This document shows, piece after piece, positions 5,838 to 55,018 of a stretch of 58,201 nt of DNA. The number at the start of each line of letters is the position of its first letter. The first letter of the stretch is position 1. The position numbers and the translations under genes are program-made. Source of the stretch: an uncultured Candidatus Saccharibacteria bacterium. GTDB lineage: Bacteria; Patescibacteriota; Minisyncoccia; Phycocordibacterales; DATGWK01. Under the pieces are notes generated by a model. The model was not told the DNA's origin, ran no database searches, and worked only from the letters and a program-made list of their open reading frames with translations. The stretch is taken from the NCBI GenBank assembly GCA_964492195.1, contig CAZBJL010000005.1, positions 1 to 58,201 on the forward strand. Direction: 5' to 3'.

Positions 5838-6086
5838 CTATTTTCGAACCATCTTCATGATCCAGATAAGGACCACCGCACCTAAAAGAGCGACAAGGAA
5901 ACTTGAGATGTTAAAACCTTGAACTCCACTGCCGCCAAAGAAACTCATGAGCCAGCCACCAATGACTGCGCCAACGATACCAACAATGACATTAACAATG
6001 ATTCCTTGTTGAGCATCAGTTCCCATGATGAGGGAAGCTACCCAGCCCACCAATCCTCCAAATATAATCCAAATGATGATACCCAT
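5838..6086 (-). CDS. GlsB/YeaQ/YmgE family (transglycosylase-associated) small membrane protein
   Basis: MGIIIWIIFGGLVGWVASLIMG... Gly-rich TM repeats typical of the family. Confidence 0.8.
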   Translation of the reverse strand: MGIIIWIIFGGLVGWVASLIMGTDAQQGIIVNVIVGIVGAVIGGWLMSFFGGSGVQGFNISSFLVALLGAVVLIWIMKMVRK

Positions 6087-6242
6087 ATATGTTTAACTAA
6101 TGATAACAATATAAGTATATACCTAAATAAAGCCCCATTTTGATCAGAACACACTCTGTTGACTTTCCCCTCCACAGGCGTACGCTGTGAGGTAGAAATG
6201 GGCTAACAATCGACACACCTGATATGTAAACAAAGGAGGGGT

Positions 6243-6582: not shown

Positions 6583-6607
6583 CCCCACACATTCGTGGGG
6601 TTTTTTT
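6583..6607 (+). terminator. Intrinsic terminator
   Basis: CCCCAC-acattc-GTGGGG followed by T7. Confidence 0.8.
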
Positions 6608-6646
6608 ATAGCAAAAAAAATTTCGCATGATATAATTCCAGACACT

Positions 6647-7528
6647 ATGGGTTTCAACTCAAAAATGAATGAACGGCTCCTCATCATCTTCTCTGTCATT
6701 CTTTTGGTTTTTATCGGTTTTGGTGGCTACAAATATTACGTATTAGGAAAAACGTATACCCAAAATAAAACTGCGAACGAGGTCGCGATTGCAGATCTTA
6801 CCTCTCGTCTCCAAGGTATCGAGCTTGAAAGGACAAGTTTGAGTGATGCGCTGACCGCAGAGCAAAGCAAAAACAGAGACTTTGAAGATCAGTTGGAAGA
6901 ACTTTCCGGCACTGTTGGTACGCTCACAAAATTAAGTAAAACTGACCCTGAACTTCTCAAAAAATATTCCAAAGTTTATTTCCTCAATGAAAATTACCTG
7001 CCTTCAAAATTAAGCGACATTCCTTCAGAAAGTTTATTTGATATACAAAAACCCCAAAAGTTTCAATCTGAAGCTCTTCCTTTTCTCAAACGACTTCTCA
7101 ACGAAGCAAAAAATGACGATGTTACTTTAAAAGTTCTTTCAGCGTATCGTTCCTTCGATACACAAGCGACTCTCAAAACGGGATACAAATTTATTTACGG
7201 CGCTGGAACTGCAAATCAATTTTCTGCTGACCAAGGATATTCAGAACATCAGCTCGGTACTGCGATCGACTTTACAAATCCAACTGTTGGCAGCACGCTC
7301 GATAATTTTGAAAAAACTCCTGAATACACGTGGCTTGTCAACAATGCGTACAAATTTGGTTTCATTCTTTCGTACCCAAGCGGAAATCAATATTACCAAT
7401 ACGAACCATGGCACTGGCGTTTCGTTGGTGTTGATCTTGCAGAAAAACTTCACGATCAAAATAAAAAATTCTACGATCTCGACCAAAATAACATCGACTC
7501 TTTCCTCATCAAAATTTTCGACAGATAG
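6647..7528 (+). CDS. VanY/M15B-family D-alanyl-D-alanine carboxypeptidase, membrane anchored
   Basis: N-terminal TM segment. SEHQLGTAIDF and EPWHWRFVG zinc-ligand motifs of peptidase M15. TATAAT lies 10 nt upstream of the ATG. Confidence 0.85.
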   Translation: MGFNSKMNERLLIIFSVILLVFIGFGGYKYYVLGKTYTQNKTANEVAIADLTSRLQGIELERTSLSDALTAEQSKNRDFEDQLEELSGTVGTLTKLSKTDPELLKKYSKVYFLNENYLPSKLSDIPSESLFDIQKPQKFQSEALPFLKRLLNEAKNDDVTLKVLSAYRSFDTQATLKTGYKFIYGAGTANQFSADQGYSEHQLGTAIDFTNPTVGSTLDNFEKTPEYTWLVNNAYKFGFILSYPSGNQYYQYEPWHWRFVGVDLAEKLHDQNKKFYDLDQNNIDSFLIKIFDR

Positions 7529-32643: not shown

Positions 32644-32952
32644 CTAGAGTTTCAAATCCGCCATTGCTTCGTCGACGGTTTTGCTTGCCTTTACTACCTT
32701 TTCGCCACCAACTGGCTCATTTATTTTAAGATTTACGCGAGCGTTGTGCTTCATGCCAACAACTCGAAGAAGGGTTCGAATGGCTTTTGCTGTGTTTCCT
32801 TCCCGACCGATCACCTTACCCATATCTGCGGAGTTAACGTCGAGGGTCAAAAGTACGCCCATTTCATCAACAACTCGTGTAATTTTTACATCGTTTGGAT
32901 TATCAACCAACGCTCGGACAACAAATTCTAAAAACTGACTGTCATGTTCCAT
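32644..32952 (-). CDS. KH-domain RNA-binding protein (YlqC/UPF0109 family)
   Basis: GKVIGREGNTAKAIRTLL GXXG KH motif, in the conserved position between rpsP and trmD. Confidence 0.85.
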   Translation of the reverse strand: MEHDSQFLEFVVRALVDNPNDVKITRVVDEMGVLLTLDVNSADMGKVIGREGNTAKAIRTLLRVVGMKHNARVNLKINEPVGGEKVVKASKTVDEAMADLKL

Positions 32953-33046
32953 GTTTTAAAGTTTAGCTGTTTATAAAGTACTTGCCTGTATTCAGAATAG
33001 GGGAAAAAACAACTAGTAGCAACGGAGAAGTCAACAGTTCTTTAAC

Positions 33047-33188
33047 TAATCTTCCAACGAGAGCGCCGTAAATTCTGCTGAATTTCGGCTACTCTCGCCC
33101 ACGGAATGACTTTCGAGAATTCATGACGAAAGTCATTCCTGCCTGCGGAAACTCTCGTTGGAAGATTAGTTTGGAAAAAATACAATAC
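33047..33188 (-). ncRNA. Candidate structured RNA element, copy A (strand assignment tentative)
   Basis: Perfect 17-bp outer helix (33047-33063 pairs with 33152-33168) enclosing a conserved hairpin and a 12-bp hairpin (33104-33115 pairs with 33127-33138). A 21-nt box shared with copy B lies at 33169-33188. Confidence 0.45.
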
Positions 33189-33207
33189 GCACACTAAAAA
33201 AGAGGGA

Positions 33208-33588
33208 TTATGCTTGTACTGGCTCTGGAGCAACTTCTGCAGGAGCAGTCGGAGCTTCTGGAGCAGGTGCTGCGACTTCTGCCGGTGCACCACCTTCAAC
33301 TTCTTTCTTGATTGGACGTTTCTTTGGGAGAACGTTTACTTTTTTACCAGGAATAAGTTTGCGGCTCACAAGGAGGTTGTGGATTGTGCCAGAAAGTTTG
33401 GCACCGTGAGACATCCAGTGTTTTACTCGGTCGAATTTAATTTCGGCCTTTTCAGCTCGGCGAGAATCAAAAGAACCCAACACTTCAAGAGACTTACCGC
33501 TCTTTGGACCGTTCTTTGAATCCGTTAAAACCACGCGGAAAGTCGGCTCGTTCTTTCGGCCAACCCTTTGTAATCGAATCATAAGCAT
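33208..33588 (-). CDS. rpsP: 30S ribosomal protein S16 with an Ala/Pro/Glu-rich C-terminal tail
   Basis: MLMIRLQRVGRKNEPTFRVVLTDS... is a canonical S16 N-terminus. The ORF extends to 33624. Confidence 0.93.
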   Translation of the reverse strand: MLMIRLQRVGRKNEPTFRVVLTDSKNGPKSGKSLEVLGSFDSRRAEKAEIKFDRVKHWMSHGAKLSGTIHNLLVSRKLIPGKKVNVLPKKRPIKKEVEGGAPAEVAAPAPEAPTAPAEVAPEPVQA

Positions 33589-33698
33589 GGGGGCCATTGT
33601 AGCAGGGGTTTTTAAAAGGGTCAATGTCTTTTAAGCCCTATCCTCCGAAGACAAAAGAAAACCGCGCAAAGCGCGGTTGGAGCACTGCCCGACAATCC

Positions 33699-36438: not shown

Positions 36439-36445
36439 AAGAAAA

Positions 36446-36467
36446 GGCTTGAGCAAATGCTCAAGCC
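36446..36467. terminator. Bidirectional terminator hairpin
   Basis: GGCTTGAGC-aaat-GCTCAAGCC, flanked by an A-run and a T-run, between convergent genes. Confidence 0.75.
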
Positions 36468-36474
36468 TGAATTT

Positions 36475-36981
36475 TTACCCTTCGACACACCCTGGCCGCC
36501 GCACGAAAACCCAGTTCGTGTCAGCATCCCACAAGTCCTCCGGCGTCATCTTGCGACAACTCAGCCGCAACATGTCTTCTTCGAGATGTGTAATGGTGAA
36601 CACCCGAGGTTTTTCTTGTGAATCCAACAGAGGCCGCATGGCCATCACCAGAGACTCACCGAAAACCTGGTCTGTGAGTTGCAACCGGAGCCTCGGACCG
36701 AAATCCGGGGGACAGAGTTCACCGAACTTCCGAATCGCTTGATTGACCTCGATCCGGGTCGCTCGTTTGGTGAAGCCAAGTTCGTAGCCCGACATGATGC
36801 CAAGCTCGGTACTTTTGACCTCGCCCGGAAGAAACTCCACATGTGGGAGAATTTCTTGAGCAAGGCCACTCACCACCATCTTCCTCCCCCTCATCAATTC
36901 CTCGAACTGACGCTTGGATGTGAGTTCCCTCTCCATCTGAAGGCTCACAGAACACGTCGCAGAAGCAAGTACAGTCATCAT
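36475..36981 (-). CDS. Hypothetical protein (orphan with an SD)
   Basis: GAGGAAG lies upstream of the ATG. It looks more G+C-rich than its neighbours. No known domain. Confidence 0.5.
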   Translation of the reverse strand: MMTVLASATCSVSLQMERELTSKRQFEELMRGRKMVVSGLAQEILPHVEFLPGEVKSTELGIMSGYELGFTKRATRIEVNQAIRKFGELCPPDFGPRLRLQLTDQVFGESLVMAMRPLLDSQEKPRVFTITHLEEDMLRLSCRKMTPEDLWDADTNWVFVRRPGCVEG

Positions 36982-40654: not shown

Positions 40655-41347
40655 CTACGCCCAATCCTTCACTTCAAGCGCCTTCTTTGCGGCTTCCTGC
40701 TCTGCGTCTTGTTTCGACTTTCCTTCTCCTGTTGCGATCATCTTGTTGCCGATAAAAACGCCGACTGTGAACTGTTTGTCATGGTCTGGGCCGGTTTCTT
40801 TTACAGTTTTATATTGCGGAGTAAGCTCAACGATCTCCTGTGCCTTTTCCTGAAAGAGACTCTTTGAGTCAATCCATGAGCCTTCCGAAAGAACAGTGTC
40901 GATAAGTGGAGAAATATGAGTATAAATAAAATCCTTTGCGGCATCGTACCCTTGGTCGACATAGACTGCGCCGATCACTGCCTCAAGTGTATTTGCCAAA
41001 ATGTACTGGCGTGCACGGCCAGTGTCTTTTGCTTCACCTTTTGAAAGGATGAGGTAGTCGTTCATGCCGAGCTTCGTGGCCACTGCAGCGCACGTAGTGG
41101 CATTCACAAGCGCTGAACGATACGCGGTCATGTCACCCTCATTTTTATCTGGATATTTTTTGAAAAGATAATCCGTGATGACGAGTTCGAGCACTGCATC
41201 GCCTAAAAATTCGAGACGCTCGTTGTGCCCAAAGCCAGCGTCTTTATTTTCATTTATATAGGAACGATGAACAAACGCTTGCCGGAGCAAGTTTTTGTCG
41301 TTAAATTTTACGCCCGCTGTTTTTTCAAATTCACTGAAATCTGGCAT
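40655..41347 (-). CDS. rnc: Ribonuclease III
   Basis: Signature NERLEFLGDAVL and a C-terminal dsRBD. Confidence 0.95.
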   Translation of the reverse strand: MPDFSEFEKTAGVKFNDKNLLRQAFVHRSYINENKDAGFGHNERLEFLGDAVLELVITDYLFKKYPDKNEGDMTAYRSALVNATTCAAVATKLGMNDYLILSKGEAKDTGRARQYILANTLEAVIGAVYVDQGYDAAKDFIYTHISPLIDTVLSEGSWIDSKSLFQEKAQEIVELTPQYKTVKETGPDHDKQFTVGVFIGNKMIATGEGKSKQDAEQEAAKKALEVKDWA

Positions 41348-41398: not shown

Positions 41399-42298
41399 CT
41401 ACTTCTTAAGCAAGATATTGATTGCCTTTGTCACGATCGGCAAAATGTCATTATAAAAATTGAGGTCAAGAATGTCGGCAAGTTTGAACCATTTTGTATC
41501 ATCGAGGCCGCCATTACCTTCTTCGAGTTTGAGATCTTTAAACGGAGCCTTGGCCATATAATAGACGACCCGCTTTCGCTTCTTTCCCGTTTCAGGGTGA
41601 TAGGCAATGTACTCATTTTCACCGAGCTTGTCTTCAATCGTGACGTCCAAACCAATTTCATCATGAGCTCCGCGAGTAATCCCCGCTTTTTCTTCTTCGC
41701 CTGGCTTTAATTTGCCCTTGGTAAGCGTCCAATGGCCAAAAACGTCATGCACAAGCGCGAGGTAGATATCGCCTTCATGGTGAGCGTATACGACCGCCCC
41801 GCCGAGGATTTCCAGGGGTGCTTCTGCATCTGGGATGTCCTTTGGGCGTTTATGCTTCGAGGTTTCGTTCTTGTCTGGCTCGCCCATTTCTTTGTACACC
41901 GCACCGAGAACGCCGTTGACGAATTTACTACTTGTGTCACCGCCGTATGTCTTTGCGAGTTCGATTGCTTCGTTAATAGCAACCTTCGGTGGCACTTCTT
42001 TATGGTCAGCAAAAATGAGTTCGTAGAGACCAACTCTTAAAATATTGCGGTCAACGATAGAAATTTTTTCGATTGGCCAATCCGGAGCAGCTTTGGTAAT
42101 AATTTTATCTAAATCAGTGCTTTTTTTGAGCACATTTTTCATGAGATTGTCCGTAAATAAAAAATCTCCCATACCGGGAGCAAACTCTTCTGTATTGCGA
42201 CGAAGAATATCGAGCGCTTCTTTTTCGCTTTTCTTATTGAAATCAGTCTCGAAGAGGGACTGAACAACTATTGATCTGGAAAGGTGCCGATTTGCCAT
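41399..42298 (-). CDS. nusB: NusB antitermination factor fused to a C-terminal Nudix-fold domain
   Basis: N-terminal ~140 aa is NusB-like (RSIVVQSLFETDF...AINEAIELAKTYG). The C-terminus has a Nudix-box-like GKLKPGEEEKAGITRGAHDEIGL. Confidence 0.8.
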   Translation of the reverse strand: MANRHLSRSIVVQSLFETDFNKKSEKEALDILRRNTEEFAPGMGDFLFTDNLMKNVLKKSTDLDKIITKAAPDWPIEKISIVDRNILRVGLYELIFADHKEVPPKVAINEAIELAKTYGGDTSSKFVNGVLGAVYKEMGEPDKNETSKHKRPKDIPDAEAPLEILGGAVVYAHHEGDIYLALVHDVFGHWTLTKGKLKPGEEEKAGITRGAHDEIGLDVTIEDKLGENEYIAYHPETGKKRKRVVYYMAKAPFKDLKLEEGNGGLDDTKWFKLADILDLNFYNDILPIVTKAINILLKK

Positions 42299-42348: not shown

Positions 42349-42573
42349 CTACTTTGCTTCTGTAGCTTTTTGAGACTTTTTTGTCTCCTTTTTTAACGCT
42401 GATTCCATGTCCATAACCTTGCGACCTTTGTATTGGCCACAACTTGCACAGACAGCGTGTTTTTCTTTGGGGGCATTGCAGTTTGCACAGACAGCAAAAC
42501 CTCGCGCCTTGAGCGCGTGATGAGACCGGCGGTTACCGGTGTGGCTTCTTGTGCTTCGCATTCGTACTACCAT
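42349..42573 (-). CDS. rpmF: 50S ribosomal protein L32
   Basis: MVVRMRSTRSHTGNRRSHHALK... and a CxxC...CxxC zinc ribbon. Confidence 0.92.
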   Translation of the reverse strand: MVVRMRSTRSHTGNRRSHHALKARGFAVCANCNAPKEKHAVCASCGQYKGRKVMDMESALKKETKKSQKATEAK

Positions 42574-42583
42574 ACAGGGAAGG

Positions 42584-42612
42584 ATTATAGCGGAAATGGC
42601 TTATTTAGGCAA
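42584..42612 (-). promoter_or_regulatory. rpmF promoter, -10 box 10 nt from the ATG
   Basis: Minus strand reads TTGCCT-17-TATAAT, then ccttccctgt, then ATG. Confidence 0.6.
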
Positions 42613-42671
42613 GAAATCTACAGCCCCACCCTCCGAAGACCGTTCGCGCACTCCTGCGGAGGGCTTTTCAA

Positions 42672-42780
42672 CCCACCCCTCCAGGAGAGCGCATAAATTC
42701 TACTGAATTTTGCTCCTCTCGGTCGCCTTCGCGACCTGCGAACTCTCCTTCCGGGCTGGGTTTGGTAAAAAATACAATAC
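42672..42780 (-). ncRNA. Candidate structured RNA element, copy B (strand assignment tentative)
   Basis: Outer helix 42672-42689 pairs with 42743-42760. Conserved hairpin at 42685-42720. GGTCGC/GCGACC hairpin at 42721-42736. Shared 21-nt box at 42761-42780. Confidence 0.45.
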
Positions 42781-42866
42781 TCATACTGTCATCCCCGACT
42801 CGCCTCGCGGCGTAAATTTAACGGGGATCCAGTATTTTTTTCAAAGAAAAACTTCTGAATATGATT

Positions 42867-43490
42867 CTATGAAATCCCCTTCAAAAAACTCCTTCGATGA
42901 ATCTCACTCGGCCCGAATTTCTTAATTTTTTGCCGATGAGAAAGCGTTCCATAGCCTTTATGAATATGAAAATCAAAGTCAGGGTACCGTTTTGATAACC
43001 GAATCATTGTGTGGTCACGGGTAACTTTGGCGACGATGGATGCAAGGCTGATGAGTGGTTCGCTTTGATCTCCACGGATGATCGTTTTTTGGTATAAAAA
43101 TTCTTCTGGAGCAGAGAGACTGCCATCGAGAATAACCATTGTCTGATGAGCTGGCACTTGGAGTTTTTTAAGAATTTTTTTCGTCGCAAGGCGAATCGCA
43201 AAGACAATTCCCTTTTCGTCGATAATTTTTGGACTGATTAAAGCTACCGCGAAGTCGAGTGATTTTTCTTTTTTTGCGTGCTTCATTTTTTTGAAAATTT
43301 CTTCACGAACTTTCGGCGAAAGCATTTTTGAATCTTTTGCGATTTTAAAAAGAGGATGTTTTGTGTTGAAAGGTATGACGACAGCACCCACAGAAACCGG
43401 TCCAGCCAAAGGCCCACGCCCTGCCTCATCTATTCCAACAATAAAATTAATACGACTCGGATATATTTTGACGATTTTCGGCGCGGTCAT
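42867..43490 (-). CDS. rnhB: Ribonuclease HII
   Basis: GIDEAGRGPLAGPV catalytic motif. The start was chosen at MTAPKIV; the ORF extends to 43532. Confidence 0.9.
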   Translation of the reverse strand: MTAPKIVKIYPSRINFIVGIDEAGRGPLAGPVSVGAVVIPFNTKHPLFKIAKDSKMLSPKVREEIFKKMKHAKKEKSLDFAVALISPKIIDEKGIVFAIRLATKKILKKLQVPAHQTMVILDGSLSAPEEFLYQKTIIRGDQSEPLISLASIVAKVTRDHTMIRLSKRYPDFDFHIHKGYGTLSHRQKIKKFGPSEIHRRSFLKGIS

Positions 43491-43518
43491 GGAAGTAGGT
43501 AAGGTAATCTCTAAGTTG

Positions 43519-43524
43519 TATAAT
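43519..43524 (+). promoter_or_regulatory. -10 box 6 nt upstream of the dnaE ATG (leaderless configuration)
   Basis: TTG-TATAAT, then cgtagc, then ATG. No SD. Confidence 0.5.
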
Positions 43525-43530
43525 CGTAGC

Positions 43531-46500
43531 ATGTCGAAATTTACACACCTCCACGTCCATAGTCATTACAGCCTCCTCAACGCTTTGCCCAAAATCCCCG
43601 ACCTTGTTGAAACAGCGAAAGAAAATGGAATGGAGGCACTCGCCCTCACCGACAACGGCAACCTCTATGGCGCAATCGAGTTCTATAAAGAATGCAAAAA
43701 AGGTGGCATCAAACCCATTTTAGGTATCGATGCGTACGTTGCTCCTCGAACTCGAGCAGACAAAGAACGCGGTATCGACAACCCTCGCCAGCGTTTGTTG
43801 CTTTTGGCAAAAGATGTTTCGGGCTACAAAAATCTCATCAAGATTGTGACTACTGCAAACCTCGAGGGCTTTTATTACAAACCTCGCGTCGACAAAGAAC
43901 TTGTCCAAACTCACAAAGAAGGTCTCATCGCTATTTCACCTGCAATGTATGGCGAAGTTGCAAGTGCGATTGCAAACAAAGATTTTGAAAAAGCCAAAAC
44001 GATCATTACCTTTTACAAAGAAACATTCGGTCCTGATCATTTTTATATTGAAATAACCTATCATCCAGAAATCGACGGTCATGAAGAAAAAATGGCAGGC
44101 GTGATTAAGATCGCAAAAGAAATGGATGTGCCGATCGTCGCGGCGCACGAAGTTTTTTATCTTTCGGTTAAAGATCGCCTTGCTCGCAACACCCTTGTTT
44201 CGATTCAAAATATTGATTACAGCGACAGGAACAACGGTGGCGGAGGTATCGGCGACTCCGAAGAAGATTTTTCTATGATCACACCAGCGCAAGCCGAAAA
44301 GTTTTTCAAAAAAATTCCGGAAGCACTTGAAAATAATGAAAAAATCGTCGGTATGTGCAACCTGGAACTCCAGCTCGGCAAATGGCTCTTTCCAAACATT
44401 GTCGTTAAAAGCGGGCTTTCGTATGACGACGAACTCCGACACATGGTCTATGAAGGCCTCAAACGCCGCGGAGTAATCGAGACTCCAGAGGCAAAAACAA
44501 GAATTGACTTCGAGCTTGGTGTCATTAAAGACAAAGGCTATGCGCCATACTTCCTCGTTGTGGCCGACCTTCTTGCCTTTGCCCACAAAAACCACATCCT
44601 CACGACAATTCGAGGTTCGGTTGCCGGATCTTTTGTTACATACCTTTCCGGAATTACAAACGTCGATCCGATAAAATTTAAATTGCCATTCGAACGATTC
44701 TTAAATCCCGAACGTCCATCTGCTCCCGATATCGACATGGACTATGCCGATAACCGTCGCGATGAAATGATTGCGTATGCAAAAGAAAAATACGGCGCAG
44801 ACAAAGTCGCCCAGATCGGAACGTTCGGTACGATGATGGCCCGTGGCTCTGTACGCGACGTTACCCGTGCACTCGGTCATCCATACATTTTGGGCGACAA
44901 AATTTCAAAACTCATTCCGATGGGTGCGCAAGGATTCCCGATGACTATCGACCGTGCAATGGAAGAAGTCGCCGAACTCCGCCAACTCTATAAAGCTGAC
45001 GCAACGGTAAAAGAAATCATCGACATGGCAAAAAAGATTGAAGGTTGTGCACGCCACATTTCAGTTCATGCCGCTGGTGTTGTTATTTCCCCTGTTCCTC
45101 TTACAGAAATCGTACCGCTTCAGTACGACACCCGCGAAGGCAAAGACATCATCACCCAGTACGATATGTATTCGATCGATGAAGAAAATGCCGGCCTCCT
45201 CAAATTCGACTTTCTTGGAATTAAAAACTTGGCGATTCTTGCCGACGCCGTTGCACTGACTAAAAAACTCAAGAACATCGACATTGATATTGAAAACGTT
45301 CAGATTGATGACAAAAAAACGTATGAAATGCTTGCTCGAGGTGAAACGCTTGGCCTTTTCCAGCTGAACGGCGAAGCAATGACGAAGTTCCTCAAAGAAC
45401 TCCGCCCGACAAACATCAACGACATCAACGTCATGATCGCCCTCTACCGTCCGGGTCCAATGCGAAACATTCCCGATTACATCAACCGCAAGCATGGAAA
45501 AGCTCCTGTCACGTATCTTCATCCAAAAATGGAAAGTTACCTCAAAGACTCGTACGGGATTTTGGTGTACCAGGAAGACATCATGTTCACGGCGCTCGAA
45601 CTCGCTGGCTACACCTGGAAAACAGTCGACAAACTCCGCAAAGCCATCGGTAAAAAAATTCCAAAAGAAATGGAAGAGCAGCATGCAGTGTTTGTCGACG
45701 GCTGTTTGAAATCTTCGAATATTCCGAAAGAAAAAGCCGAGCAAATCTGGGATTTGTTCGATCCGTTCAAAGGCTACGGCTTCAACAAAGCCCACGCCGC
45801 AAGCTACGGCAAGGTTGCATACCAAACGTCATACATGAAGGCGAATTTCCCTGCGATCTATATGTCAGCCGTCCTTACTGCGGATTCTGGCGACGTCGAG
45901 CAAATCGCCGAAATTATTTCTGAATGTAAACGCATGAAGATTCCCGTACTCGCCCCAGACATCAATGAAAGCTTTGGTGGATTTACCGTCGTGCAAGACG
46001 ACGCATCACAAATAGAGAAAATTCGCTTCGGGCTCTACACCATCAAAAACCTTGGCGAAGGCATTGCTGACACGATTATTACGGAAAGAAAGAAGAATGG
46101 AAAATTCAAATCTCTTTCAGATTTTTTGGATCGAGTGAAAGATAAAAATTTAAATAAAAAGTCTCTCGAAGCCCTTATTAAAACTGGAGCAATGGATGAA
46201 CTTGGCGAACGCGGCCAGCTTCTTGCGAATCTCGAAAATATTCTTGCATACAGCAAAGAAAAAACTGCGGGTAACGATGGACAATCCCTTTTTGGTTTGA
46301 TGGCGGACACCTCAAGTATCCCTGGCCTCCGGCTCGCTCCCGCTGAACCCGCAAGCAACCAAGACAAGCTGACCTGGGAACGCGATCTCCTCGGACTCTA
46401 CATTTCTGGCCACCCACTCGATCGCTTCAAAGAAAAAATCGCAAAGCTTGGCGGAGCAATTAACCAGACAAAAGAACACGCAATCGAAGGCAGCACGATC

Positions 46501-53479: not shown

Positions 53480-55018
53480 CTAGGATTGATGCTTTGGCGT
53501 AACCCAAAAACCCATATATCGACCAAGCATAAGACGAGTCTGTGCATCGAGACTCGGAATTGAACCGAAGACAGTGATCGTAATCGGAATCAAAAGCCAT
53601 TGAATGAGCATGAAAACAAATTTAAAGCGTCCATGGACGATCGGTCGTTTTGGCAAAAAGCTCATAGAAATAATCGCAGAGAAAATGAGTCCACACATTG
53701 CAAGCACCATGAGGTTTCGCGTCACGACCGGCAAGTTATACGAAAGGACAGTGGTATGAAATCTGTATCCACCAAGGATAAGCGGCAACCAACTCAACAT
53801 AAAAATAATGATCGGGTTTGTCGCAAGCGACCAAAAGCCCTCAAGCTGAACAAATGCGACTCGTATCTTTTTCCAAGTCGAAATCCGTTTATTTTTTACC
53901 AAACCAAACAAAATATAGGGAATATTTTCCACTCCCCAACCCCATCGTCGCTGTTGTTTGTAAATATTTATAAGTGTCTGCCAAAAGGTTGGTGCGAGAT
54001 TTGCATCCATAGAAACGGGGTACGAAATCGGCGTCACAAAGTAGTCTCCGTCGTACGCAAGGTATGCATTCCAGAAAATTCGAGAGTCTTCGGAAACCAT
54101 ATTTTTCTGCCAATATCCAATTTCATGCAACACTTTAAAGCTCACTGAATGCGAAGAAAACGTCGCAATCTTTTCTGGACGTTCCTGCTGAATCATCTGC
54201 CAAAACGTACCTGACGTCGCAACAACTCGCGACAGTGCAGGCGCATCCCACATATTGTTGTTATAAAGCGGCACAGGTTGGAAAGAAGTCCTGAACGGCT
54301 TTTCCCCTGTGAGGAAATGCCACGTGATGCACGCGAGATAGTCCGAATACACCACAGTATCGATATCGAACGCAGACACGAGCACATTTTCATAAGGAAT
54401 TTTCTTTGCATCCAATATTTTCTTTCGAGCTTCATCGATTGCGTGTGCAATGTTTGATCCCTTTCCAGCCATTTCGCCAGGTAAATCCTTCGGGTGAATA
54501 GTGATAAGCAAATCACCAAAGACACCGGCGTATTCTTTCTTTACCTTTTCCGCTTTTTGTACTGCATCATTCCCTGCTCGTTCCTCAAGCGCAAGGACAA
54601 CGAGAATCTTTTTATTATCGTAATGCGAATCAACAAGCGACTTGAGGCAGTTTTCAATAACACTCACATCTTCTTTGTAGTACGGCAACAAAATGAGGTG
54701 GTAAATGTGTTCGTATTTCACATGACTTAACATTTCAAGCCAGTTAAGTGACCTGTTATGTTTCAAACGTCGCCAGTTTTGTCTCAAATACGTCGAAAGG
54801 TACACTGTCTTTAAAAGCCAGTAAAAATCAAAAATAATAATAAAAATTGCTGCGTAAACAGGTGCAAAGTACGAAAGGAGCACACAACCAAGAATCGAGC
54901 CCCACGCGAGAGCTCCTGGAAGGATTTCAAACGCTCGGTACAGAGTTCTGTCACGGCCAGTGAGTTCGGAGGCTCGGCCGATATGAAGTGGTTTGTAGAT
55001 TGGAACAGATGAATCCAT
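53480..55018 (-). CDS. Processive family-2 glycosyltransferase (cellulose/chitin-synthase-like), polytopic
   Basis: GT2 core with D, DxD (FDIDT) and QQRRWGWG (QxxRW) motifs, flanked by TM segments. Confidence 0.85.
   Translation of the reverse strand: MDSSVPIYKPLHIGRASELTGRDRTLYRAFEILPGALAWGSILGCVLLSYFAPVYAAIFIIIFDFYWLLKTVYLSTYLRQNWRRLKHNRSLNWLEMLSHVKYEHIYHLILLPYYKEDVSVIENCLKSLVDSHYDNKKILVVLALEERAGNDAVQKAEKVKKEYAGVFGDLLITIHPKDLPGEMAGKGSNIAHAIDEARKKILDAKKIPYENVLVSAFDIDTVVYSDYLACITWHFLTGEKPFRTSFQPVPLYNNNMWDAPALSRVVATSGTFWQMIQQERPEKIATFSSHSVSFKVLHEIGYWQKNMVSEDSRIFWNAYLAYDGDYFVTPISYPVSMDANLAPTFWQTLINIYKQQRRWGWGVENIPYILFGLVKNKRISTWKKIRVAFVQLEGFWSLATNPIIIFMLSWLPLILGGYRFHTTVLSYNLPVVTRNLMVLAMCGLIFSAIISMSFLPKRPIVHGRFKFVFMLIQWLLIPITITVFGSIPSLDAQTRLMLGRYMGFWVTPKHQS

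Follow-up and report, generated by a model that had tools for sequence, protein, structure and literature searches.

Two copies of a small palindromic element between core genes of a Patescibacteria-type contig

Two copies of one structured element

Contig CAZBJL010000005.1, from an uncultured Candidatus Saccharibacteria bacterium, was analysed over positions 1 to 58,201 (hereafter the window). It carries a run of core genes of a Parcubacteria/Patescibacteria-type genome, and the best named relatives of its RNase HII and ribosomal protein S16 come from metagenome-assembled genomes of Parcubacteria, Paceibacterota, Taylorbacteria and Zambryskibacteria. Two spacers in this run hold a hairpin-rich repeat of ~125-150 nt. 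Copy B (42664-42787, 124 nt) lies in the spacer at 42574-42866, downstream of rnhB and upstream of rpmF, surrounded by genes that are all on the minus strand. Copy A (156 nt) is flanked by the stop codon of rpsP (33208) and the start of the KH-protein gene (32952). The two copies are oriented alike with respect to the genes around them, and the gene-sense strand of the element is the minus strand (Table 1).

Both copies fold into a three-way junction built from a closing stem (P1), a bulged hairpin (H1), a copy-specific hairpin (H2) and an A/U-rich box of 24-25 nt. The P1 arms are exactly 20 nt long in each copy; in copy B, 16 of the 20 positions form Watson-Crick pairs, and the others make up a G.G mismatch and a 3x3 GGA/GGA internal loop. 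Between the copies, 11 of the 20 P1 pairs are identical (the outer AAC:GTT, the inner GAGAG:CTCTC and three more), five differ on both sides yet still pair, and four are unpaired in copy B. The middle 12 positions of the arms match at only 3 of 12. H1 differs by one compensatory double change and by one pair inserted or deleted. All modelled pairs form, a proportion that falls to 36-47% when the pairing partners are slid by 1-3 columns.

A previous sequence-only reading of this DNA had described copy B as the second copy of a structured element, with an outer helix, H1, H2, a shared box, an extra hairpin and a repeated tract, and all of these are present at or within 2 nt of where they were placed. 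The kinship of the copies is borne out by nhmmer (E about 1e-4 to 3e-5) and by a covariance model built from copy B alone, which retrieves copy A at 63.9 bits (E 1.4e-14). The outer helix, given as 42672-42689 pairing with 42743-42760, extends by two more pairs, and the shared box, with one indel between the copies, reaches further than described, to 42787. One detail requires correction. GAGAG (42685-42689) had been assigned both to the outer helix and to the closure of H1, which are mutually exclusive pairings, and the minimum-energy fold puts it in the outer helix; the H1 hairpin stands, but its GAGAG closure does not.

No further copy was found by blastn, nhmmer, a GAGAG-anchored inverted-repeat scan or the covariance model in 245 kb comprising the window and the loci of relatives. 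This search covers ~65 kb of the organism's own genome, namely the window and L015, a 7-kb stretch past the window edge that was retrieved by RF1 look-up and contains no copy. Within the window, the covariance model gives no additional match at E values up to 10. Copy A is seen a second time in L016, which a KH look-up retrieved from Logan assembly SRR12487045 of the same organism: positions 1-55 are identical to the window over the 3' half of H1 and the P1 arm, and the contig stops inside H1, as though the repeat or hairpin had broken the assembly graph. Run SRR12487046 contains a near relative. For copy B, exact look-ups of L32, the NusB-NUDIX protein and an HlyD-like protein returned no independent assembly.

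The predicted RNA folds have z scores of -5.5 (copy B) and about -10 (copy A) on either strand, none of 200 shuffled sequences reaching the same stability, and the DNA folds have z scores of -5.4 to -12. In each copy, the gene-sense strand has a slight advantage in folding. Of 13 larger intergenic gaps in the window, the only ones to stand out are these two spacers, one other and the gap containing the tRNA. Past the RNase R gene, the intergenic sequence at 36439-36678 is G+C-rich (0.52) and has a fold z of -3.9; it opens with a clear terminator (GGCTTGAGCAAATGCTCAAGCC followed by a T-run), and its remainder may code on the minus strand. Elsewhere, a 29-nt inverted repeat with 86% complementarity (6596-6624 / 7028-7056, arms 403 nt apart) brackets the start and first ~400 nt of a VanY-like gene.

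The pairing pattern is uniform. Across P1, H1 and H2 of both copies, 74 of 74 pairs are Watson-Crick and none is G-U. RNA helices under selection on one strand would be expected to contain several G-U pairs among 74. Perfect, strand-symmetric palindromes free of G-U would fit inverted repeats that were made or kept at the DNA level, or that are very recent.

Database searches return no homologue. Scanned against Rfam 15 at gathering thresholds, the whole window gives tRNA as its sole match, and E-value scans of the two spacers reach at best 12-19 bits against thresholds of 40-178, which is noise. Sequence collections, evidently lacking the window's own genome, were scanned for exact matches to patterns derived from the two copies, and diverged relatives could escape such scans. 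The H1 pattern has 0 matches in genome_contigs, 0 in viral_contigs and 8 in metagenome_contigs, all of the last being unrelated coding palindromes. The box pattern has 11 matches in genome_contigs and 22 in viral_contigs, which fall in unrelated taxa, are coding-like and have no adjoining element. A blastn search against plasmids and phages gave nothing relevant. No transposase, RAYT, integrase or reverse transcriptase was detected in the window (30 open reading frames (ORFs) scanned plus the remaining annotated genes), nor any PF01797-type protein, Y1 transposase, cassette array or plasmid/phage context.

Within the window, the copy B box (42759-42774) has a 16-nt perfect match, inverted, inside a family-2 glycosyltransferase gene (53890-53905). 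The glycosyltransferase mRNA would hence be complementary to a gene-sense copy B transcript, and it would pair with copy A through a 1-nt bulge. This match is probably due to chance in A/T-rich sequence.

Flanking signals and the orthologous spacers of relatives

The gene order dnaE, rnhB, rpmF, nusB-nudix, rnc, smc ... RNase R, rpsP, KH, trmD, rpoB is conserved in relatives, whose neighbourhoods were retrieved through exact look-ups of homologues of RNase HII and S16 and whose proteins are 67-87% identical. Five related lineages lack the element between rnhB and rpmF, and two lack it between rpsP and KH. In L001-L003 (RnhB 75% identical), the rnhB-rpmF spacer measures 133 nt and is element-free. 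In L056 (77%), L058 (73%), L006 (69%) and L004 (67%), it holds an ORF of 115, 136, 189 and 207 aa, respectively, with a TTGACA-type promoter right after the rnhB stop and, directly before the rpmF promoter, an intrinsic terminator (CCCCGCAC...GTGCGGGGCTTTTTTC). At the other locus, L050-L054 (S16 87% identical) have an element-free rpsP-KH spacer of 115 nt, and L055 carries another, unrelated ORF of 181 aa. All five spacer ORFs, that of L055 included, come with a strong promoter and an intrinsic terminator of their own. Across 196 kb of relatives' loci, the single match to the covariance model is copy A of the same organism in L016.

These comparisons do not support two parts of the sequence-only reading. 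The link to ribosomal-protein genes that it implied is not borne out, the element being missing from the orthologous spacers at both loci, and the paired architecture is not conserved in relatives, an outcome that it had itself named as refuting a conserved structured RNA. Neither spacer has the element as a conserved feature, and different lineages have acquired different DNA there. The spacers after rpsP and rnhB are recurrent landing sites for new DNA or genes in this lineage. A common mobile cargo was considered for the relatives' spacer ORFs and ruled out: none of the five has a Pfam match, they are not homologous, and the three that were aligned (181-207 aa) are mutually dissimilar.

The rpmF promoter proposed earlier is confirmed, and it bounds the element on the downstream side. 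This promoter and the rpmF start are kept in L001-L003, L004, L006, L056 and L058. Because the conserved promoter lies downstream of the element, between it and the rpmF ATG, the element is not the L32 mRNA leader, as the sequence-only reading had considered probable. With no copy in the same spacers of relatives, it is also most likely not a conserved ribosomal-protein regulator. A separate transcript or an rnhB 3' untranslated region (UTR) is possible, as was also suggested then.

The extra hairpin downstream of copy B occupies the position at which the relatives' intrinsic terminators abut the rpmF promoter. At this position the relatives read ...GTGCGGGGCTTTTTTC-TTGCCT, and GGGGCT...TTC-TTGCCT is common to them and the window. 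A terminator scan finds only a weak site with a broken U-tract, and the hairpin is read as a degenerate terminator. Its G-rich arm nearly repeats that of P1, which corresponds to the repeated tract noted earlier, a G-rich/C-rich direct repeat of CCCCACCCTCC (42624-42634) and CCCACCCCTCC (42672-42682). An inverted partial copy, CGGAGGG, lies between the two repeats (42624-42682). A direct repeat with an inverted copy is the pattern expected of template-switch duplication and suggests how hairpin arms may arise in this spacer.

Upstream of copy B, a putative promoter just past the rnhB stop stands at the place where relatives have the TTGACA promoters of their spacer ORFs. Copy B could therefore have its own transcript of roughly 190 nt, or it could be read through from rnhB. 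The upstream hairpin has no counterpart at copy A. Neither copy has a U-tract after P1, no terminator-like site was called at copy A, and no promoter or terminator proper to that copy is evident.

With both strands counted, L001 (10706) and L050 (10417) each have a single occurrence of the rare 8-mer TTAGTTAA, which lies inside the empty spacer orthologous to that of copy B or copy A. On the minus strand of the window it is found at 33042-33049, the KH-side boundary of copy A, and at 6093-6100, 12 nt upstream of an ORF for a small membrane protein (5838-6086). Chance could explain it, as could a role as a target or promoter-proximal motif.

Table 1. Positions of the element copies, their parts, the flanking signals and genes, and the ORFs in relatives' spacers
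Feature	Position	Strand	Remarks
Copy B A/U-rich box, AGTATGAGTATTGTATTTTTTACCA	42763-42787	minus	unpaired, directly 5' of P1; conserved
Copy B P1 5' arm, AACCCAGCCCGGAAGGAGAG	42743-42762	minus	AAC + 12 copy-specific nt + GAGAG; pairs with 42670-42689
Copy B junction TTCGCA	42737-42742	minus	
Copy B H2, GGTCGC-GAAG-GCGACC	42721-42736	minus	perfect 6-bp palindrome; copy-specific; as described earlier
Copy B junction GAGAGGA	42714-42720	minus	conserved
Copy B H1, GCA-AAATTC-AGTA-GAATTT-A-TGC	42691-42713	minus	conserved; one-base bulge (T/A)
Copy B single base G	42690	minus	conserved
Copy B P1 3' arm, CTCTCCTGGAGGGGTGGGTT	42670-42689	minus	CTCTC + 12 copy-specific nt + GTT
Copy B tail GAAAAG	42664-42669	minus	after P1 3' arm
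Copy A, whole	33040-33195	minus	part order as in copy B
Copy A box, AGTGTGCGTATTGTATTTTTT-CCA	33172-33195	minus	3 substitutions and 1 indel against the copy B box
Copy A P1	33152-33171 / 33044-33063	minus	20/20 Watson-Crick
Copy A H2	33103-33139	minus	perfect 13 bp, 11-nt loop; unrelated to copy B H2
Copy A H1, GCCG-AAATTC-AGCA-GAATTT-A-CGGC	33065-33089	minus	
Copy A tail	33040-33043	minus	ends ...GTT AAAG at the position aligned to the copy B P1 end
Upstream hairpin CCCCG...CGGGG, inner CGCC-GCGA-GGCG	42783-42835	minus	minimum-energy and centroid folds; copy B spacer only
Promoter-like TTGAAA-18-TAAATT	42815-42844	minus	putative; 9/12 positions; just past rnhB stop
Extra hairpin CCCTCCG...CGGAGGG	42629-42663	minus	followed by TGGGGCTGTAGATTTC (42613-42628)
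rpmF promoter TTGCCT-17-TATAAT	42584-42612	minus	10/12 positions
rnhB	42867-43532	minus	
rpmF	42349-42573	minus	
NusB-NUDIX hydrolase fusion	41399-42298	minus	299 aa; kept in every relative fetched
rnc (RNase III gene)	40655-41347	minus	1.3 kb from copy B
rpsP	33208-33624	minus	
KhpA-type KH protein gene	32644-32952	minus	trmD further down
Spacer ORF, L004	4058-4681		
Spacer ORF, L006	6785-7354		
Spacer ORF, L055	10507-11052		
Spacer ORF, L056	929-1276		
Spacer ORF, L058	1788-2198		

Possible nature of the element

We tentatively interpret the element, at a probability of roughly 0.45, as a small, young, lineage-restricted palindromic insertion of the miniature inverted-repeat transposable element (MITE), REPIN or RPE kind, passively transcribed and serving at most as a 3'-end or processing structure. 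What is observed is the presence of two copies, their fold, their absence from relatives and from the searched collections, and the conserved rpmF promoter; mobility, transcription and any effect on mRNA are what we infer. Copies A and B would be two insertions of a non-coding repeat of MITE, REPIN, RPE or YPAL type, in which a conserved core (the A/U-rich box, the junction motifs GAGAG, CGAGAG and CTCTC, and the bulged H1) is surrounded by copy-specific perfect inverted repeats (the 12 central nt of each P1 arm, and H2). They would have landed in permissive spacers downstream of rpsP and rnhB, where relatives carry other insertions, and the element would not need a cellular function. Gene-sense transcription would reach the element from rnhB or rpsP as read-through, with the promoter-like site in the spacer as an alternative start at copy B. 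The transcript would then fold into the three-way junction closed by the 20-bp stem, and this structure might act as a 3'-end barrier or be processed by an enzyme of the RNase III or RNase Y type, ahead of rpmF with its independent promoter.

A small repeat is preferred because there are two copies, the orthologous sites are empty, the spacers accept insertions, the palindromes are symmetric, the orientation is common to both copies and no homologue was detected. Filled and empty sites are seen against flanking genes and an rpmF promoter that are conserved throughout, and the empty state holds in all relatives fetched, although loss instead of gain is possible at 67-87% identity. The shared blocks are significantly similar, yet the middles of the P1 arms and H2 are unrelated between the copies and perfect within each. 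Also in favour, TTAGTTAA lies in the empty spacers of L001 and L050 and forms the KH-side boundary of copy A. The element is also shorter than 200 bp, non-coding (its open frames are not conserved) and repeated in the genome, as expected of MITEs.

Several points weigh against an inserted repeat. Only two copies are known in the ~65 kb of genome covered, and the window encodes none of the mobility enzymes looked for. The copies share no terminal inverted repeats beyond AAC...GTT and GAGAG...CTCTC, their long arms being copy-specific, and there is no consistent target-site duplication; a possible TTAG at copy A has no copy B counterpart. Conserved junctions with one conserved hairpin, freely varying stems and exact 20-nt P1 arms would also be expected of a functional structured RNA. 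In addition, the relatives are fairly distant, so that absence is no proof of recent gain, and a deletion in L050 could have removed most of an older copy A.

The strongest alternative, which we consider less likely, is a young lineage-specific family of structured non-coding RNA, composed of paralogous small RNAs or of cis-acting 3'-UTR or intercistronic elements. A protein or another RNA would be recognised by the three-way junction, its conserved nucleotides and the H1 loop, and copy B would be a ~190-nt unit bounded by the promoter-like site and the terminator-position hairpin, signals that do flank this copy. Such a family would explain why the junctions, the H1 loop and bulge and the box are conserved while the helices differ (five double changes in P1 and one in H1), and it is also consistent with the complete formation of the modelled pairs, the fixed arm length, the slightly more stable gene-sense strand in both copies and a spacer G+C content of 0.49 against 0.43 for the window. 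However, because only two sequences exist, this covariation is inseparable from DNA-level palindromes, and perfect palindromes would fit a DNA-level origin as well as selection on RNA. The lack of any G-U pair, the absence from relatives, Rfam and all collections scanned, and the lack of an evident promoter or terminator belonging to copy A also argue against it.

An improbable extension of the inserted repeat is a new kind of insertion in which the closing stem is rebuilt at each landing site and the target flank serves as template for its internal 12-nt segment, which would make the element a mobile structure with a programmable arm. In copy A, the KH-side arm overlaps sequence, GATTAGTT and possibly TTGGAAGATTAGTT, that the closest relative already has in its element-free spacer (...CTGGGGATTAGTTAAGG in L050 vs ...GTTGGAAGATTAGTTAAAG in the window). 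The other arm is its perfect inverted copy and lies between two conserved element blocks. If that arm is templated, it could arise through fold-back synthesis, template switching, or guidance by RNA or DNA. Either the opposite arm is an inverted copy of pre-existing flank or the relative has deleted most of an older element, and the evidence equally allows the latter.

A riboswitch- or attenuator-like switch at copy B has a similarly low standing. With P1 formed, the downstream hairpin would be free to terminate rnhB read-through; with P1 unformed, the first G-rich arm would pair with the second C-rich tract, and transcription would continue into rpmF-nusB. On paper, each of the near-duplicate G-rich tracts (the reverse complements of 42672-42682 and 42624-42634) has a choice of two C-rich partners, the sequence-only reading having noted such a competition for the C-rich 5' arm, and the hairpin sits where relatives have true terminators. 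Against this, copy A has no such hairpin, the U-tract at copy B is broken (TGGGGCTGTAGATTTC), rpmF has its own conserved promoter downstream, the arrangement is not conserved in relatives and the neighbouring genes suggest no ligand.

It is very improbable that the element works as a DNA-level site, folded as a single strand or cruciform, such as an attC-like or Xer-like recombination site or the relic of a single-strand origin. The two strands fold equally well with Watson-Crick pairs throughout, and the copy ends (ACCAAAC/TCCAAAC ... GTTGAAA/GTTAAAG) match the attC consensus at 5-6 of 7 positions; however, these end boxes are complementary over only 3 nt, the window offers no integrase, cassette array or plasmid/phage context, and the two copies lie in direct orientation, 9.6 kb apart, among core genes. 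A small protein gene or leader peptide is effectively refuted: open frames exist in the gene sense (38 codons from the ATG at 42780 in copy B; 85 codons, 33042-33299, in copy A) and end at an aligned position just past P1 (GT-TGA and GT-TAA), but indels between the conserved blocks shift the frame and leave unrelated peptides (EIQQNLRRSRWKIS vs QNSVEFMRSPGGVG), the copy A frame begins inside rpsP without a ribosome-binding site, and conservation tracks base pairing rather than codons.

Four further candidates were rejected. No CUGANGA/GAAA core was found at the junctions when inspected by eye for hammerhead and other consensus ribozyme cores. As a CsrA sponge, the copy B spacer has 8 GGA motifs, which is near chance, and copy A has only 2, both paired. 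For boxA/NusB antitermination, GCGCTCTC is weakly boxA-like and base-paired. Finally, no conserved -35/-10 pair lies inside the box on either strand; TTGGAA-17-TACAAT occurs on the plus strand in copy A only. The window encodes a CsrA-family RNA-binding regulator at 200-559, which at 119 aa is longer than usual.

If the element is a small inserted repeat, it would be an ordinary selfish or neutral palindrome in an unusual, tiny and streamlined Parcubacteria/Patescibacteria genome. It would represent a new family without detectable homologues, of a general kind that is already known; no such repeat family was found described for Parcubacteria/Patescibacteria in the literature searched. For annotation, the lesson is that the element should not be labelled an L32 or S16 regulatory leader. 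Its importance would rise if the full genome had many copies with flank-matching arms, indicating a target-templated stem, or if a discrete RNA with a defined partner were made.

Comparison with known systems

Recombination sites of the attC type have complementary R''(RYYYAAC) and R'(GTTRRRY) boxes and L boxes with extrahelical bases, and occur in a cassette/integrase context. The ends of the present copies pair over 3 nt only, and the window has neither an integrase nor a cassette array. Palindrome-associated elements derived from IS200/IS605 (PATE) carry similar subterminal hairpins at both ends, have a fixed target of 4-5 nt on the 5' side of the left end and come with a Y1 transposase. 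Here, one hairpin (H1) is conserved, the plus-strand left flanks are TTTAAC and TTTTCAAC, and no Y1 gene is found in the window.

The architecture resembles that of three-way-junction riboswitch aptamers and ribosomal-protein leaders, with P1 and two hairpins, conserved junctions and variable stems, followed at copy B by a hairpin with a competing pairing partner. Unlike these, the element does not lie in the 5' UTR of the adjacent gene and is absent from the orthologous sites. It also has no Rfam match and no G-U pairs, and no expression platform accompanies copy A. Stems processed by RNase III, among them phage T7 R1.1-type sites and NEMIS hairpins, share the ~20-bp intercistronic helix and, in copy B, the internal loop, and an RNase III gene lies nearby (Table 1). 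Such sites would leave the box, H1 and the junction motifs unexplained.

REP/REPIN-RAYT systems are likewise lineage-restricted, vertically persistent extragenic hairpin palindromes located downstream of genes (PMC3116915, PMC3337134). REPINs consist of two inverted copies of one conserved REP, are present in tens to hundreds of copies and come with a RAYT gene (PMC3116915, PMC3337134). In the present element, the arms differ between copies instead of forming a conserved REP, and the window has no RAYT.

The signature features of small non-autonomous bacterial repeats have been set out previously (PMC2229807, PMC10969869, PMC3116915), and the MITE-like Correia/NEMIS, ERIC, RPE and YPAL/RU-2 families among them (PMC2229807, PMC10969869) differ from the present element in several ways. 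Here the known copies number only two, each has long inverted repeats of its own instead of family-wide ones, neither a target-site duplication nor a cognate transposase was found, and a three-way junction with a one-sided conserved box takes the place of a simple hairpin. The likenesses are a length below 200 bp, an intergenic and non-coding nature, a stem-loop on either strand, filled and empty sites, co-orientation with genes and probable co-transcription. YPAL/RU-2 elements have internal inverted repeats, have no TA ends and target sites next to dyad symmetry (PMC2229807), and the present element agrees with YPAL in all three respects. Once transcribed, some known elements serve as RNase III substrates or alter the stability of neighbouring mRNA, and roles as 3'-end barriers or processing sites have been described for Correia/NEMIS and ERIC (PMC2229807). 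By analogy, an influence on mRNA stability or RNase III processing would be the most plausible effect of the element described here.

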